A stretch of DNA of 64,000 nucleotides from Candidatus Komeilibacteria bacterium (GTDB taxonomy: Bacteria; Patescibacteriota; Patescibacteriia; UBA1558; GWA2-36-10). Made by a program: the position numbers and the translations under genes. This document shows, in pieces, positions 5,507 to 47,021 of this stretch; the stretch's first letter is position 1, and each line of letters opens with the position of its first letter. The notes under the pieces are model-generated. The model had not been told where the DNA came from. It searched no databases and worked only from the letters and a program-made list of their open reading frames with translations. The DNA is taken from NCBI GenBank assembly GCA_018656065.1, contig JABHZY010000024.1, positions 5,227 to 69,226 on the forward strand. Direction: 5' to 3'.

Positions 5507-7009
5507 ATGGCAAAAAACCAAGAAAAAGAGCTTGATATCAATGATGAATATCAACAAAGATTAGCTAAATTAGATAATCTAAGAGAAGCTAAAATAGACC
5601 CTTATCCAGCCCAAAGTAATAAAACTACTGATGTGGCTGATTTTTTGAAAGATTTTGATAAATTATTAGCTAGCCAGAAGAAAATAATAATTGGAGGTAG
5701 GATTACTAGCTTACGTCTACAAGGTGGTTCCTGTTTTTTTCATTTTCAAGATTATTCGGGAAAAGTTCAAATATTTTTTAGAAAAGATCAGATCGGGGCA
5801 GAGGACTATAAAATTTTTAAAGAAAATATTGATACAGGCGATTTTATAGAAGTGGCTGGTACAGCTTTTGAAACTAAGACTAAAGAACCAACTCTTTTAG
5901 CTACAAGTTGGCAAGTTTTATCTAAGGCTTTATTGTCATTGCCAGATGAGTATTATGGCTTGAAAGATCCTGATCTTAGATTCAGAAAAAGATATTTAGA
6001 TTTATTAGTCAATCCAAAAGTAAAAGATACTTTTAAATTACGTAGCGATGTTATTAAATTGACTCGTCAATATTTTGATAAAGAAGGTTTTATAGAAGTA
6101 GACACTCCAGTTCTACAATCTGTAGCCGGCGGAGCCACCGCTGAGCCATTTATTACTCATCACAATGCTTTGGACATTGATATGTATCTTAGAGTCGCTC
6201 CTGAGTTGTATCTAAAACGTCTGATAGTTGGCGGCTATGATCAGGTTTATGAAATGGCTCGTTGTTTTAGAAATGAAGGTATAGATCATCAACATAATCC
6301 AGAGTTTACTCAAATTGAAGCTTATTGGGCATACAAAGAATATAGCTTTTTGATGGAATGGATGGAAAAATATTTTGAATTTTTAGTAAAGGGTATTAAC
6401 AATGGCGATACCAAAATAAAAAATGCTAAAGATATAATTGATTTTAAAGGACCATATCCAAGACTTGATTTTAAAGAAGCCTTAGACAAAGCTTTAAAAA
6501 TTGATCTTGATAAAACTAGTGATAAAGAATTGGTAGATATTGCTAAGCAAGCTAAGTTAGATGTCGATAAAACCTGGGGTAGAGGTAAGTTGTTAGATGA
6601 ACTGTATAAGAAATTTGTACGTTCCAAACTTATCCAACCAACCTTTATTATCAACCATCCGCTAGAGCTTTCTCCACTATCTAAGAAAATGCCAGATAGA
6701 CCAGGTTATGTAGAAAGATTTCAATTGGTAGTTAAAACTGCGGAACTTTGCAATGCTTTTTCTGAGCTCAATGATCCACTTGATCAAGAAGAGCGTTTTG
6801 CTGAGCAAAAGAAACTTCACGAAGCTGGCGATCAAGAAGCTCAAGGATCTGATGCCGAGTTTGTTGAAGCTCTTAAACATGGTATGCCGCCAACAGTTGG
6901 TTTAGGTGTTGGTATTGATAGATTAGTAATGATGCTTGGTGATATAGAAAATATCAAAGAAGTTATTTTATTTCCAACTATGAGACCAAAAAATAATGAA
7001 AATAAATAA
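5507..7009 (+). CDS. lysS: lysine--tRNA ligase (class II)
   Basis: 500 aa. OB-fold N-terminus and class II motifs including CFRNEGIDHQHNPEFTQIE and GVGIDRLVM. Confidence 0.97.
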   Translation: MAKNQEKELDINDEYQQRLAKLDNLREAKIDPYPAQSNKTTDVADFLKDFDKLLASQKKIIIGGRITSLRLQGGSCFFHFQDYSGKVQIFFRKDQIGAEDYKIFKENIDTGDFIEVAGTAFETKTKEPTLLATSWQVLSKALLSLPDEYYGLKDPDLRFRKRYLDLLVNPKVKDTFKLRSDVIKLTRQYFDKEGFIEVDTPVLQSVAGGATAEPFITHHNALDIDMYLRVAPELYLKRLIVGGYDQVYEMARCFRNEGIDHQHNPEFTQIEAYWAYKEYSFLMEWMEKYFEFLVKGINNGDTKIKNAKDIIDFKGPYPRLDFKEALDKALKIDLDKTSDKELVDIAKQAKLDVDKTWGRGKLLDELYKKFVRSKLIQPTFIINHPLELSPLSKKMPDRPGYVERFQLVVKTAELCNAFSELNDPLDQEERFAEQKKLHEAGDQEAQGSDAEFVEALKHGMPPTVGLGVGIDRLVMMLGDIENIKEVILFPTMRPKNNENK

Positions 7010-11522: not shown

Positions 11523-12479
11523 ATGGTTAAAACAAATAAAAAGTATCAGCTTCCCCTCTTAGATGAGTATCTTGAAAATATTCAGTCTAATAACTACTCT
11601 ACTGAGACGGTCTACAACTATGAAAGAGACTTAAATACTTTTGAAAACTTTTTAGAGAGTGATATTAAAACAGAGTTTAAGAAATTAACTAAGAGGTCTA
11701 TTATAAAATTTAAGGCTTACCTATCCTCTACTTCTAGAACTACTGCTTCAAATGAAGTTGGTGAAAAAAAATTATCGAGTTATAGTATTAATCGTATACT
11801 GTCAGCCTTGCGTTCTTATTTAAAATTTTTAATTGACGTAGATTATAAAACTCCTGTGACTGCTGATGCTGTTAAGTTGCTTAAGACGGAAAAGAAGTAT
11901 GGGCAAGTACCAGAGATGAATCAATTGATTACTTTGATAGAAGCACCAAGTAAATTTGAAACTGATCCAACTATTAAGTTGCGTAACCGAGCAATGCTTG
12001 AAACTTTATTTGCTACTGGTATGCGTATTTCTGAGCTTCTTTCTCTTAAGCGTGAGCAACTAGATAATACTGGACGTATCTATGTAATGGGCAAAGGTAA
12101 GAAACAGCGTTTTGTTTATTTAACTCCTCGAGCTATCAAACATATTAAAGATTATTTAGCTACGCGTCATGATAGCACACCTTATATTTTTATTCCTTAC
12201 AGGGGTTTAAATAACGCTGATAAGAATAAAAAGATATCTACTAATTATTTGCAATCAAAAATAAAAAGATACAGAGAACTCTTGGCTATTAATATACCTA
12301 TATCAGCTCACTCTATTCGTCATAGCTTTGCTACCTATTTGGCCGAAAACGGCGCTAATCCGGCAGCTATTCAAATACTACTAGGACATGAGTCATTAGA
12401 TACAACTACTCGTTATGTACACGCTAGTGACCGTTATGCAGAAAAAATGCATACAGATTTCCATCCTCTCAAAAAATAG
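11523..12479 (+). CDS. tyrosine recombinase, XerC/XerD family
   Basis: N-terminal SAM-like domain. Catalytic region ATGMRISELLSL...HSIRHSFATYL...LGHESLDTTTRYVH (R-H-R-H-Y pattern). Confidence 0.88.
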   Translation: MVKTNKKYQLPLLDEYLENIQSNNYSTETVYNYERDLNTFENFLESDIKTEFKKLTKRSIIKFKAYLSSTSRTTASNEVGEKKLSSYSINRILSALRSYLKFLIDVDYKTPVTADAVKLLKTEKKYGQVPEMNQLITLIEAPSKFETDPTIKLRNRAMLETLFATGMRISELLSLKREQLDNTGRIYVMGKGKKQRFVYLTPRAIKHIKDYLATRHDSTPYIFIPYRGLNNADKNKKISTNYLQSKIKRYRELLAINIPISAHSIRHSFATYLAENGANPAAIQILLGHESLDTTTRYVHASDRYAEKMHTDFHPLKK

Positions 12480-12506
12480 GTATTAAATATAGATAATATA
12501 TTAATA

Positions 12507-12531
12507 AAATAGCTAATCTTAGCTATTTTTT
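12507..12531 (+). terminator. intrinsic terminator of the recombinase gene
   Basis: AAATAGCTAA-TC-TTAGCTATTT hairpin followed by a T run. Confidence 0.6.
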
Positions 12532-12552
12532 AGTTTATTTAGATTATAACTC

Positions 12553-12581
12553 TTGACAAATATTAATATCTATGTTATAGT
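12553..12581 (+). promoter_or_regulatory. promoter of RNA A
   Basis: TTGACA, 17 nt, TATAGT. Confidence 0.65.
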
Positions 12582-12587
12582 GAGTAA

Positions 12588-12710
12588 TCACCCAAGGAAG
12601 GTGAAACTTATCTGGACCAGCAAAGTCCAAAAGATCCCCCGCTGCTGGCGTTCGTCCCCCGTTTTCTCCTCACATGGAGAATTCTAGAACGCCAGCAGCC
12701 CCCCTTTTTT
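12588..12710 (+). ncRNA. orphan GC-rich small RNA A (about 123 nt), family unknown
   Basis: Starts downstream of a consensus promoter. Hairpins CACC/GGTG and TGGAC/GTCCA. A 13-bp stem (12641-53 / 12687-99) encloses a CUCC/GGAG hairpin. Ends in T6. No ATG ORF with an RBS. Confidence 0.55.
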
Positions 12711-12759
12711 ATAAGGGTTTTTTGTTTATTTAAAAATTTAGCTAAAATGAAAAAAGGGA

Positions 12760-12969
12760 CCTTACGATCAGATCCCTCTTCTTCCACCCCAGCACATGGG
12801 CCAGAATGGGTGCTCCCTATAAGGAAGCTGAGAAAGCGGCGTTCCGGATTAGCGTGTCGGTCTTCACGAAGGTTCAGCTTTACACTAATGACCTAGTGAA
12901 GTTTTAAACCAATTACATCAAATCCAGATGCCTACTTTACATTGTTGGTACGTTTGCTTTTTGAGCACA
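12760..12969 (-). ncRNA. orphan GC-rich RNA B (about 210 nt), family unknown
   Basis: Minus-strand promoter at 12976-13004. 3' hairpin GGGAUC/GGUCCC (12766-86) plus U6. Its U.G pair is valid only on the minus strand. Only ORFs of 16 codons or fewer. Confidence 0.55.
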
Positions 12970-12975
12970 AAAAGA

Positions 12976-13004
12976 ATAATATCACATATAGATATATTTG
13001 TCAA
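12976..13004 (-). promoter_or_regulatory. promoter of RNA B
   Basis: TTGACA(13004-12999), 17 nt, TATTAT(12981-12976) on the minus strand, directly after the M23 gene terminator. Confidence 0.6.
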
Positions 13005-13009
13005 TAGTA

Positions 13010-13040
13010 AAAGCCCCTATAGAAAAGGGGCTAATTTTAG
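13010..13040 (-). terminator. intrinsic terminator of the M23 peptidase gene
   Basis: AGCCCCT/AGGGGCT hairpin followed by a T run on the minus strand. Confidence 0.65.
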
Positions 13041-13060
13041 TTAAAATTTTATAGTATTAA

Positions 13061-14314
13061 TTAAGGCAGATAATTCAATGGATTAACAGGAATTCCGTTT
13101 AGACGTACTTCTAAATGAAGATGAGGTCCAGTAGAAAATGGTCCAGCTCCTCTAGTACCAGGCATACCACCAGTATAGCCGATAATATCCCCTTTAGAGA
13201 CAAATTGATCAGCGCTAACATTTATTTTATTAACATGACCATAGACACTAGATAGACCATCAGCATGGACTAGCATAATATAGCTATAACCAGTTGCTCC
13301 TCCATCTCTAGCTTTAGCTACGTAACCTGACTCTGCAGCTCTAAGAGCAGTGCCTTGTGGAGTAGCAATATCTATGGCATTATGTTCAAAAATATATCTA
13401 TAAGGATAATCTGGATCATGGAAATAAGCAGTTATCCGTTGTGATGGTATGGGCCACATTAATCCATCGCTATCAATACTATCTAATTGTAATTGACGGT
13501 TTAATTTTTCTCGAGCAATTTTTTCTAGATAAACTATATCATTATCAATTTGTTTTTGCTCTTCTTTAGCCTGACGAAGCAATTCTTGATATTTAGCTTC
13601 TTGACCTTCAGTAGAAGCCATTAAATTGAACTTTGATATTTTTTGTCCGTCTAAATTTCCTTTTTTACCATTTAATATATTTTTCAGAGTATCTAATTCA
13701 GTTTTTTCATTTTCTAAACTATCTTTATCATTATTTAAGGCTAATTTTATTTCTCCAAGATTTTCTACTCCTTCAAAAAGATTATCTTGCATATCTTCTA
13801 ACCTATTTAGGTCAGCTATAAAATCACTAAAATTATCATTTAGTATTAAAATTTCTAGCAAACTAGATTTTTGTTGTTGTCTATGTAGAGATCTAATTAC
13901 TTCAGCTAAGATGTCTTTTTGGTCATCTATCTCGTTTTCTTTAGCGTCTATCTTTAATTCAGTATTTTCTATTTTTAAATCAAGAGTTTCAACTTCTAAA
14001 CCAGCTGCTTCAATTTCTAAATTAATTTTAGCAATACTTTCATTAAGAGTACTAACTTGGTTAGAAAGACTGCCTAGTTCTTTTTGTTTAGCATAGATAT
14101 TTTTTTGATAGATATCTATTTGTCTATGTAATTCTTGAATTTCTGATCTTTTAGCATTAATATCCTGATTTACTTGCCATGTTTCCACAGTATCTAAGGT
14201 ATCTAATTTATACTCTACGGCTAAGCCGTTATTTGGCAAAAAAATAAAACTAAGCAGTGCTATAGTTAATATACTGGATAATACTCTAATAGTTTTTATT
14301 TTTATTTGTAGCAT
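13061..14314 (-). CDS. M23 family metallopeptidase with long coiled-coil (EnvC-like)
   Basis: Signal/TM N-terminus and about 250 aa of coiled coil. C-terminal HNAIDIA...GPHLHLEV LytM motifs. Confidence 0.9.
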   Translation of the reverse strand: MLQIKIKTIRVLSSILTIALLSFIFLPNNGLAVEYKLDTLDTVETWQVNQDINAKRSEIQELHRQIDIYQKNIYAKQKELGSLSNQVSTLNESIAKINLEIEAAGLEVETLDLKIENTELKIDAKENEIDDQKDILAEVIRSLHRQQQKSSLLEILILNDNFSDFIADLNRLEDMQDNLFEGVENLGEIKLALNNDKDSLENEKTELDTLKNILNGKKGNLDGQKISKFNLMASTEGQEAKYQELLRQAKEEQKQIDNDIVYLEKIAREKLNRQLQLDSIDSDGLMWPIPSQRITAYFHDPDYPYRYIFEHNAIDIATPQGTALRAAESGYVAKARDGGATGYSYIMLVHADGLSSVYGHVNKINVSADQFVSKGDIIGYTGGMPGTRGAGPFSTGPHLHLEVRLNGIPVNPLNYLP

Positions 14315-32216: not shown

Positions 32217-32309
32217 ATTATTATAATTCAAAAAATTTACTGTTTTTACAGTAAATCTGTATATATTTTAGTAAATTATAGCTTAAAAGTCAACTTATTT
32301 TAGTAAGTT

Positions 32310-32610
32310 AAAAACCCTGTCAGAGTACGAAGAAGCTGAAAGGGGGTTCAGCAGCTCGTTGATCACGAAGTGATCCTCTGACAGGGTGTGTCGTGGTGGA
32401 CCTTGATTAGGTTCCGCTCCGCTCTGATCGTGTGGCAGCGCTAGGCAATTTATTACCTAAATCAAGGTCCAACTATATTAATAGGGTCATCGGTGGAGGT
32501 CTGCTATAGCTGCTGGATCTAAAAGATCCATTGGCTTGGGTGCGTACACAGCCACAGCCACAGCCTCATGGAGGAGAGAAAGACACATCGATGACCCAAG
32601 AACATATAAC
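32310..32610 (-). ncRNA. orphan GC-rich structured RNA D1 (about 300 nt, three domains); strand tentative
   Basis: Three domains: an 11-bp stem 32315-25 / 32376-86 closing a three-way junction; a 15-bp stem 32398-412 / 32455-70; and a 12-bp stem 32484-95 / 32586-97. On the minus strand it is preceded by TTGACT-17-TATACT and ends in U5. One G.U in the third stem favours the plus strand instead. Confidence 0.45.
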
Positions 32611-32616
32611 CGAGCC

Positions 32617-32645
32617 AGTATATATTATATACTAAAGATAGTCAA
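32617..32645 (-). promoter_or_regulatory. candidate promoter of RNA D1
   Basis: TTGACT(32645-40), 17 nt, TATACT(32622-17) on the minus strand. Confidence 0.4.
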
Positions 32646-32661
32646 TATCTAGCAAATAAAC

Positions 32662-33120
32662 AAAAAAAAGTACCGGTCCCCCGCGTGAAATACGAGGGAC
32701 CGGCGAGAAAGGCTGCTACGAGCAAGCGTCGACGGGTTGAAGTATATTCTCTCCAGTTGGGACAGGATACCCCGGTCGGAGTTTGAGTCAACAGACAACA
32801 TGCTGGGGTCGCAAATCCCAGCGCTCCTTGAAACGGTCCTTGAAGGACCAGGTGCTTGCTTGCAATAGCAGCCACTTACAGTGGCCATCGCATTTTGATT
32901 GAATAGATCTGAGAGAGACGCCGGCGTTCCGTAGAACAGGTGTGATATGCTAGTCAAAGGCGCTAGCAGGCACACTGATGGTCTTGTCTCCCTATCCAGG
33001 GCAATCGTAAATTGATGGTCACTACCATCGTGTCGTATCTCCGTATTCTCGGACTTGTTTTTCCCTCCTAAGAAGTGTATTATGACACGCTGGCTTTAAA
33101 ATTGATGAACCCTTCTTGAC
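32662..33120 (-). ncRNA. orphan GC-rich structured RNA D2 (about 460 nt), family unknown
   Basis: Minus-strand promoter at 33127-56. Many local hairpins, including GAUGGU/ACCAUC, GCUAG/CUAGC, GCCAC/GUGGC, GGUCC/GGACC and GCUGGG/CCCAGC. An 11-bp terminator stem (32673-32703) has a U.G valid only on the minus strand and is followed by U8. The ORFs in this region run through the terminator. Confidence 0.55.
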
Positions 33121-33126
33121 TATTTA

Positions 33127-33156
33127 ATTTTAGACTAAACAAAGTAATATTGTCAA
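33127..33156 (-). promoter_or_regulatory. promoter of RNA D2
   Basis: TTGACA(33156-51), 18 nt, TAAAAT on the minus strand. Confidence 0.6.
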
Positions 33157-33413: not shown

Positions 33414-33626
33414 ATGCCCTGTACACTCAGCAAAGGTCAAGATGTTCGGAATATTGGAACTGGTGAAGCCCATATTATCACTGATATGCGCAAAACTCCT
33501 CCTCGTCAAATTGTTGGAGGTTGGGGGTCTGATGTCGTAGAATATACTCACATCCAGGTAGATGGGCAAACTAACAACGATGGGCATCCGGTTTGGCAAG
33601 CCTCTGGTGATTTCGAAGAAATCTAA
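33414..33626 (+). CDS. orphan GC-rich small protein (70 aa)
   Basis: Strong SD AAGGAGGG 5 nt before the ATG. Protein-like composition. Own terminator. The GTG at 33300 in the track is an unlikely start. Confidence 0.7.
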   Translation: MPCTLSKGQDVRNIGTGEAHIITDMRKTPPRQIVGGWGSDVVEYTHIQVDGQTNNDGHPVWQASGDFEEI

Positions 33627-44058: not shown

Positions 44059-44478
44059 ATGTACTGGAAAAATGATGCTGAAGCAATCGCATTTTTACAA
44101 TCGCGCGGACAACTAATCCCTATGGATCCTAAAGACATCAGAGAAGTTGCCACATTAATTCTTGATTTAGAATTAAAGAGGGCTAGAGAAGCTGAAGAGG
44201 CAGCTGAAAAAAGAACTGCTAGAGAAAAAAGAGGTCTCCGAAATTGGGATATAATCAAAAGAGGTCGCGAAGTTGTAGAAGCTGAAGAGGCAGCTGAAGA
44301 AGCTCGCATCAGACAGGCTGCAGCCGATGAATTTAAGCGACGAAAAGAAGCTGAGGAGGCGGCTAATCGTTGTTCATCATGCGGTAAAATTAAAAAAACC
44401 TGTAACACATGCAGTACGACGGTATGTTGTGGAACAAACATAAGTGGGTACTGCTGGCATTGCTGGCATGATGATTGA
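44059..44478 (+). CDS. orphan GC-rich protein (139 aa): charged helical region plus Cys-rich C-terminus
   Basis: SD AGAGGGTG before the ATG. EAEEAAE repeated three times. Tail CSSCGKIKKTCNTCSTTVCCGTNISGYCWHCWHDD. Own terminator. Confidence 0.65.
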   Translation: MYWKNDAEAIAFLQSRGQLIPMDPKDIREVATLILDLELKRAREAEEAAEKRTAREKRGLRNWDIIKRGREVVEAEEAAEEARIRQAAADEFKRRKEAEEAANRCSSCGKIKKTCNTCSTTVCCGTNISGYCWHCWHDD

Positions 44479-46787: not shown

Positions 46788-47021
46788 ATGAAAGCACCTA
46801 CCCTGGATTTTCCCAACGACGAAACAGCTGTGATCCTAATGCCCAATTGCCGTATAGCTACCGCTCTGCGCGAATTCCTCTTTGAACATGACTTCCATAT
46901 GAAGTCCCAAGATACTCAAGGAGGATTGATTATTCGGATACCAGCGGACGCGGACATTACTGAATCTAAGGAGCGTCTGCAGATTCTCTATGGCAAATTT
47001 TGCTATAAACAAGGTATTTAA
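46788..47021 (+). CDS. orphan GC-rich small protein (77 aa)
   Basis: SD GGAGGT 4 nt before the ATG. Protein-like composition. 5' UTR of about 75 nt. Own terminator. Confidence 0.7.
   Translation: MKAPTLDFPNDETAVILMPNCRIATALREFLFEHDFHMKSQDTQGGLIIRIPADADITESKERLQILYGKFCYKQGI

Follow-up and report, generated by a model that had tools for sequence, protein, structure and literature searches.

What kind of genes, if any, occupy the GC-rich spacer behind xerC in a Komeilibacteria-like genome of the Candidate Phyla Radiation (CPR; Patescibacteria)? We analyzed a 64,000-nt segment of such a genome (hereafter the window), with positions 12553-13004 as the region studied. The spacer (12480-13060) is bounded by xerC, a gene for an Xer-type tyrosine recombinase (11523-12479, plus strand), and by a gene for a coiled-coil/M23 peptidase of EnvC-like type (13061-14314, minus strand). 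The window is AT-rich (32% GC), and the spacer carries the strongest GC island within its first 30 kb (12562-12912, up to 57% GC). With moderate confidence, we propose that this xerC-M23 slot contains two independent, convergent RNA genes, each running from a promoter to a terminator: RNA B on the minus strand, a member of a structured RNA family, and RNA A on the plus strand, a descendant of the leader of a protein gene.

Both units would be transcribed from strong sigma-70-type promoters and ended by intrinsic terminators. An earlier examination of the letters and reading frames (the sequence-only reading) had reported TTGACA-17-TATAGT and TTGACA-17-TATTAT promoters, and both were found, with 11/12 matches each. 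The two small 5' hairpins that it had assigned to RNA A, the 13-bp stem around a CUCC/GGAG hairpin, and the following T6 were also confirmed. For RNA B, the strand-specific terminator (13-bp stem and T6) was upheld, whereas the length of 210 nt had to be raised to about 220-225 nt; and the two 3' ends, which had been placed about 50 nt apart, are separated by about 20-35 nt (12710 or 12723 versus 12744). The minimum free energy of RNA A (12588-12712) was -45.4 kcal/mol, compared with -25.0 ± 3.7 kcal/mol for dinucleotide shuffles, and that of RNA B was -76.8, compared with -56.4 ± 4.2 (z-scores in Table 1). Seven terminator-like sites were counted in the region, where shuffled sequences would give 0.9. 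Each unit therefore has what is generally looked for in a stand-alone small RNA (sRNA) gene, namely a sigma-70-type promoter, an intrinsic terminator, an intergenic position, no conserved open reading frame (ORF), and a stable fold. Six independent metagenome assemblies of one population agreed over the whole of positions 12400-13100 (100% identity), and the region is therefore not an assembly artefact.

No family of Rfam 15 (4227 models) matched the window at the gathering threshold or positions 12400-13120 at E ≤ 10. Scans of 9 + 7 related loci (E ≤ 5 in the seven) returned only tRNAs and chance matches, and ARAGORN found no transfer-messenger RNA (tmRNA). The cores of RNA A and RNA B gave two chance matches in GC-rich phage ORFs and nothing else among viral contigs, and a distant blastn search against phages gave nothing. 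Full-text literature searches yielded nothing relevant on sRNAs or dif sites of CPR/Patescibacteria. RNA A and RNA B are accordingly new orphan sRNA genes outside the RsaE/RoxS, 6S, type I toxin-antitoxin (TA), and Rfam 15 families; in describing the units as orphan, convergent, and each equipped with a promoter and terminator, the sequence-only reading was right, and neither unit holds a convincing ORF.

The slot was compared among related loci, which were fetched mainly through the XerC protein and are designated by L-numbers. The XerC query retrieved 43 genome loci and 37 metagenome loci, 11 exact-protein look-ups added more, and about 100 loci were examined in total. The closest XerC relatives (92-77% amino-acid identity) came from metagenome-assembled genomes of Komeilibacteria/Parcubacteria (Patescibacteria), which have in common the order serS-alr-ftsQ-xerC followed on the opposite strand by M23-gltX-wecG-ligT. 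The promoter of RNA A (P_A) could be aligned in seven lineages with TTGACA and TATGTTAT invariant, and the promoter of RNA B (P_B), which adjoins the terminator of the M23 operon, in six lineages with both hexamers and the TG motif invariant. Past either start site the sequence soon became unalignable between lineages; that is, the promoters are kept, whereas the transcribed bodies are not. A convergent pair of an A-type and a B-type RNA was present in the window, L002, L004 (= L046/L073/L099), L091, and L092. The B-type RNA stood without a partner in L001, L093, L010, and L101 and faced a protein gene in L096/L097 and L100, and in L013 and L053 the P_A promoter drives a gene for an SLT-domain protein. 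The spacer ranged from 47 nt in L011, where the slot is empty, to about 4 kb in L001 and L007, and relatives carried unrelated contents in it: protein genes, some small and some large, a tRNA (L091), and various RNA-like units rich in GC. The layout of the slot, in which P_A points rightwards, P_B points leftwards, and the two terminators meet back to back, recurs in at least five related lineages and would be ancestral in the clade.

RNA B had homologs only in L001 (= L044; 6986-7212, minus strand) and L093 (1426-1651, minus strand), with nhmmer E-values of about 1e-14. The promoter, the 5' end UUUUUGUGCU, the base of the long hairpin (AAAGU.GGC / GCC.CUUU), the hairpins P3 and P4, and the terminator were kept in all three sequences, and the apex of the long hairpin varied in both sequence and length. 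The RNAalifold consensus of the three sequences had 67 pairs, and 92% of its cells were standard pairs, compared with 41-52% when the 3' partners were slid by 1-3 columns. Nine pairs had changed on both sides, a number reached by 1/500 shuffles, which is suggestive support for covariation and not statistical proof. Identity between the window and L001 was 85% in the promoter, 78% in P3-P4, 76% in the helix base, and 54% in the apex, compared with 62% at third codon positions of xerC as a proxy of neutral drift. The promoter, the base of the long hairpin, P3, and P4 would thus be maintained, with the apex drifting at about the neutral rate. The strand of RNA B had no ATG-initiated ORF of more than 10 codons, and a plus-strand ORF lying opposite to it (12747-12896) was closed by TGA in both L001 and L093. 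From these comparisons, we take RNA B to be a real gene for a structured non-coding RNA, whose family evolves fast and is restricted to certain lineages.

With the B-type RNAs of other lineages it has in common only an architecture of similar kind and, in sequence, a weak patch at the 5' end (AGUAGUACCUG-like). Every B-type RNA carries an anti-Shine-Dalgarno-like word, which in RNA B of the window is CUUCCUU, complementary to AAGGAAG. Kept helices, a drifting apex, and the lack of a conserved single-stranded seed point to a role that depends on shape; with low confidence, we suggest that RNA B may act as a protein-binding RNA or scaffold and not through a conserved antisense seed.

RNA A has a different history. 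Its perfect 13-bp stem encloses an inner UCUCC/GGAGA hairpin and a C5 run (12656-12660). This run and those at 12636-40 and 12699-12704 lay exactly where the sequence-only reading had placed three unpaired C-runs; their mean unpaired probabilities were 0.99, 0.98, and 0.70, respectively, and they make up 3/9 of all plus-strand runs of at least five C in the window, a strong enrichment. The body of RNA A had no homolog in about 100 related loci, even in relatives with 92% identical XerC, or elsewhere in the window. The 13-bp inverted repeat of RNA A, flanked by C5, was also considered as a possible miniature inverted-repeat transposable element, which was ruled out as the 13-bp arms had no further copies.

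The 5' part of RNA A, in contrast to its body, is shared. The promoter, the first bases AAUC, and the octamer AAGGAAGG were common to RNA A and the A-type RNAs of L002, L004, L091, and L092, with the octamer invariant in all five. In the same slot of L003/L047 and L096/L097, AAGGAAGG is the Shine-Dalgarno (SD) sequence of an intact gene for a 139-aa membrane protein (AAAGGAAGGUGAG.AAAAUG), which is 77% identical between these two groups. L023 also has the gene (76-77% identical), with its start preceded by another word, AAAGGTGG. Various truncated forms were observed: L091 keeps AAAATGAGGA / AAAAUGAGGA and reaches a stop after three codons, L004 has AUG and two codons, L002 has AUG-UAG, and the window has CUG. 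The shared promoter, 5' end, and SD word suggest that RNA A is a truncated gene leader. Most likely, an accessory gene was lost and RNA A is what remains of its leader, SD, and start. The ORF would have disappeared and AUG changed to CUG, and a C-rich GC hairpin terminator, specific to this species, would now close the transcript. Such a young derivative may be neutral or may have been recruited, with the exposed C-runs and the SD word as candidate interaction sites. It resembles sRNAs derived from leaders or pseudogenes in keeping the promoter, 5' end, and SD of a gene that is intact elsewhere, with a degenerated start codon and a terminator soon after. It differs from them in having no downstream gene to regulate, in its novel C-rich hairpin past the SD, and in the invariance of the SD word in five truncated lineages.

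A conserved leader, about 200 nt long, precedes the intact 139-aa gene (3990-4255 in L096/L097; 7490-7722 in L003). It contains a long-range stem that resembles a terminator (AAAUCAAUACA ... UGUAUUGAUUUUUU) and, ahead of the SD, a tract rich in C. This leader may be an attenuator or riboswitch-like; the L003 copy, the one included in the scan, had no Rfam match.

Table 1 Features of the xerC-M23 slot in the window, with the positions of the palindrome in relatives.
Feature	Position	Strand	Remarks
Palindrome TAGCTAATCTTAGCTA	12510-12525	.	16 bp; just past the xerC stop; left edge of the variable slot
Palindrome in relatives	L002 6986; L003 6953; L009 6961; L012 6958; L014 6934; L010 7157; L049 5957		
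Promoter P_A	12553-12581	plus	TTGACA (12553-12558), 17 nt, TATAGT (12576-12581); 11/12 matches; TG at 12573-12574
RNA A	12588-12710	plus	~123 nt, possibly to 12723; fold z = -5.5
RNA A, two small 5' hairpins	12588-12604; 12613-12629	plus	
RNA A, AAGGAAGG (SD relic)	12594-12601	plus	Loop and 3' arm of the first hairpin
RNA A, CUG	12612-12614	plus	Sister RNAs have AUG at the equivalent place
RNA A, terminator module	12636-12704	plus	C5, 13-bp stem (12641-12653 / 12687-12699), C6; then T6 (12705-12710)
Second small hairpin CCCTTTTTTATAAGGG and T6	12702-12723	plus	After the RNA A terminator
RNA B	12969-12744	minus	~220-225 nt; fold z = -4.8
RNA B, small 5' hairpin	12967-12955	minus	
RNA B, long irregular hairpin	12941-12830	minus	
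RNA B, P3	12829-12813	minus	
RNA B, P4	12810-12785	minus	
RNA B, terminator	~12783-12750	minus	Followed by T6/U-run
Promoter P_B	13004-12976	minus	TTGACA (13004-12999), 17 nt, TATTAT (12981-12976); 11/12 matches; TG extension
Intrinsic terminator of the M23 (EnvC-like) peptidase operon	13012-13032	minus	Right edge of the slot

The recombinase beside the slot obtained nearly the same score with the models of XerC, XerD, and archaeal XerA, in each case below the equivalog cut-off. From these profile scores and the conserved synteny, it is a housekeeping Xer recombinase and not an element integrase; the units do lie downstream of a tyrosine recombinase, as first described, but this is a matter of position only. 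Genes on both sides converge toward the spacer, and the GC skew switches there from about +0.2 to about -0.15, with a cumulative maximum at ~12 kb. These features fit a replication terminus, which is a probable location of the slot, although skew is confounded with gene strand here.

A palindrome at the left edge of the slot (general form TAGCTAAT(A/C)TTAGCTA, flanked by A/T runs; also written TAGCTAATATTAGCTA) occurred once per xerC-M23 spacer in many relatives, where it lay to the left or to the right of the inserted material. We regard it as a candidate for a dif (Xer) site or for a protein-binding site, and to our knowledge it is unlike known dif consensus sequences. Degenerate half-palindromes (12733-12748 and 13034-13051) flank the RNA B unit. 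The half-site word was not enriched in spacers (2.3 versus 1.8 per kb), a word too common in an AT-rich genome to be scored. The slot resembles dif modules and integrative mobile elements exploiting Xer (IMEX) in being a variable site next to a xer gene, with a single-copy conserved palindrome, a GC-skew switch, contents that differ between close relatives, and extra integrase genes near it in some of them; it differs in lacking pairs of full Xer-site copies around the units. The analogy is suggestive only.

Several points weigh against the proposal of a structured RNA B family and a leader-derived RNA A. The transcription of both units is read from their sequence, and a protein-binding role of RNA B is conjectural. 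The covariation in RNA B comes from three sequences, two of which are 84% identical, and the structure was drawn from these same sequences. Over its whole length, RNA B is 62% identical between the window and L001, which equals the neutral proxy, so that conservation by itself is no proof of selection. Profiles of the B subfamilies did not cross subfamily borders in nhmmer, and the homology demonstrated between them is confined to the weak 5' patch. A covariance model of the RNA B 3' domain gave weak matches to the 3' ends of the B-type RNAs of L002 and L004, which were rejected because an unrelated terminator matched as well. As to RNA A, five lineages without the ORF have kept P_A and AAGGAAGG invariant, which argues against a mere relic and suggests that the truncated RNAs are themselves selected.

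The neutral rate of the RNA B body bears also on a first alternative, namely that both units are debris: accessory genes or cassettes that are decaying in a terminus spacer prone to recombination, left with strong promoters and terminators and without a role. The widely varying length and unrelated contents of the spacer are what such a process would leave, and RNA A clearly stems from a truncated gene start. CPR genomes are, however, small and gene-dense. Moreover, P_A and P_B have been kept near consensus, TG included, in 6-7 lineages; the pairing of RNA B has been maintained through changes on both sides; AAGGAAGG has stayed invariant after loss of the ORF; and the sequence is fixed in the six assemblies. 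We regard this alternative as unlikely.

The sequence-only reading had speculated that RNA A is a regulator of the RsaE/RoxS class, whose C-runs would pair with G-rich SDs and repress the SD-bearing, GC-rich accessory genes of a genome with an SD-less core. A selective target class does exist. Upstream of ~59 long ORFs of the window, core genes were essentially without SD and many looked leaderless (xerC: TATAAT, 6 nt, ATG); as had been claimed, SD-like words (GGAGG, AAGGAAGG) occurred only before small GC-rich accessory ORFs (33414-33626, 44059-44478, and ~46788-47020). RNA A is also short and stand-alone, with an intrinsic terminator and, like the C-rich sRNAs of Bacillales (RF01820), more than one unpaired C-rich motif. 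Its duplexes with the three proposed 5' regions, however, were no better than those of shuffled controls (P = 0.235, 0.95, and 0.04; none significant after correction for three tests), the very outcome that the sequence-only reading had named as speaking against its idea. The shuffles kept CC dinucleotides, which makes the control conservative. RNA B gave P = 0.17-0.26 against the same regions, none significant, and the longest perfect complementarity to the rest of the window was an AT-rich 12-13-mer. No sequence or structure match to RsaE appeared even at E ≤ 10, the host belongs to the CPR and largely lacks SD sequences, and two of the C-runs lie immediately beside the terminator stem, of which they may simply be a part. 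The C-rich body was absent from all relatives, including those nearest in XerC, so that there is no conserved seed or target pairing. An RsaE-like regulator is thus decidedly improbable.

In a broader variant, the slot RNAs would silence the translation of accessory or foreign genes that depend on an SD, RNA A through its C-runs and the B-type RNAs through their CU-rich anti-SD-like words, with the slot as an Xer/dif-linked site of cassette exchange at the terminus. The confinement of SDs to accessory genes, the anti-SD-like words, and the turnover behind conserved promoters beside a candidate dif provide its context, and none of the pairing statistics was significant. We consider it a long shot.

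It is very improbable that either unit is a divergent housekeeping RNA (6S, signal recognition particle (SRP) RNA, a fragment of RNase P RNA, or tmRNA) that Rfam missed on account of aberrant CPR sequences. The units are GC-rich and structured in an AT-rich genome, as stable RNAs are; a tRNA lies in the L091 spacer; and some B-type RNAs (L010, L002, and L091) fold as long rods. RNA B itself recalls 6S RNA (RF00013) in its length (~200 nt), its rod-like hairpin rich in GC, its pairing kept despite poor conservation of sequence, and its own strong promoter. It differs in that its ends are unpaired, without a 5'/3' closing stem, in the absence of a central bubble, and in its layout of an internal long hairpin with three others, P3 and P4 among them. 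No covariance model matched at E ≤ 10 in the window or at E ≤ 5 in seven relatives, ARAGORN saw no tmRNA, inspection revealed no GGAA/AGCA motif of SRP helix 8, and the slot is empty in L011.

Convergent arrangements with adjacent terminators are known from par RNAI/RNAII, txpA/RatA, and bsrG/SR4, and the slot resembles such type I TA pairs in being an intergenic spacer with two small transcripts that converge on adjacent or back-to-back terminators. In that case one RNA would be the mRNA of a toxin or slot gene and the other would repress it by pairing. In L096 and L003, the B-type RNA has a gene for a membrane protein as its partner, and CUUCCUU of RNA B is complementary to AAGGAAG. The transcripts here do not overlap, however, and neither encodes a small hydrophobic ORF: RNA A has a TTG-initiated 44-aa frame that starts in the -35 box, and the RNA B strand has a GTG-initiated 59-aa frame (12787-12608) that is not hydrophobic, crosses the terminator, and shrinks to 17 codons in L001. 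Complementarity between RNA A and RNA B was no better than in shuffles (86% do as well), and RNA B against the cognate SD region gave P = 0.085-0.8 in six lineages. Furthermore, the B-type RNA persists alone with an intact promoter in the four loci without a partner. An antisense or TA pair is scarcely probable.

Least credible is a protein-coding gene of 94 codons from CUG 12612 (after the AAGGAAGG SD) to TAG 12896, with RNA B as its antisense: the frame is open throughout, in register with the SD-proximal CUG, and contains the ATG-initiated part 12747-12896, but it would start with CUG and crosses two intrinsic terminators and a T6/A-rich gap, matches nothing in Pfam or NCBIfam, is closed by TGA in both RNA B homologs, and lies in GC-rich sequence, which is naturally stop-poor.

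Some further observations concern the slot and its surroundings. P_A and P_B (12549-12578 and 12979-13008) are inverted copies, 77% identical across 30 nt. The small hairpin that follows RNA A (12701-12722) is identical at 19/22 positions, in inverted orientation, to the M23 terminator (13009-13030), and a TTTAG(C/T)TAAAA half-palindrome lies next to both. These inverted copies may be the trace of a duplication or recombination that built the slot. In L091, a tRNA gene (6011-6082, 71 bits) with its own TTGACA promoter is followed by a small GC-rich hairpin RNA, the A-type RNA, and the B-type RNA. Other plus-strand GC-rich units of ~190-430 nt, running from promoter to terminator, occupy the slot in L009 (6985-7215), L012 (6985-7225), L003 (6990-7480), and L014 (6975-7420); they had no Rfam match.

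Between ftsQ and xerC, L098/L099 (1541-3017) and the P0003 locus have a second tyrosine recombinase (323-327 aa) and a 166-aa DUF8371-like gene, and the xerC-M23 spacer of L098 is filled by five small minus-strand genes; an integrated element appears to use the ftsQ-xerC/spacer region. Elsewhere in the window, the minus strand at 32300-33130 carries two more GC-rich units (~330 and ~430 nt; D1 and E of the sequence-only reading), each with a TTGACA-type promoter and a terminator. These (32.2-33.2 kb) had no Rfam match at the gathering threshold or at E ≤ 1.

Almost nothing is known of regulatory or structural RNAs in CPR/Patescibacteria, whose genomes are tiny and which cannot be grown alone. 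The locus adds modestly to the catalogue of orphan sRNAs and does not reveal a new mechanism. It provides a concrete, positionally conserved candidate RNA pair, one member of which has structure-preserving homologs and can be searched for in metatranscriptomes. It also points to rapid turnover of cassettes in a probable terminus/dif region of these genomes, and it illustrates how, once an accessory gene is lost, its decapitated leader can become an sRNA-like transcript.

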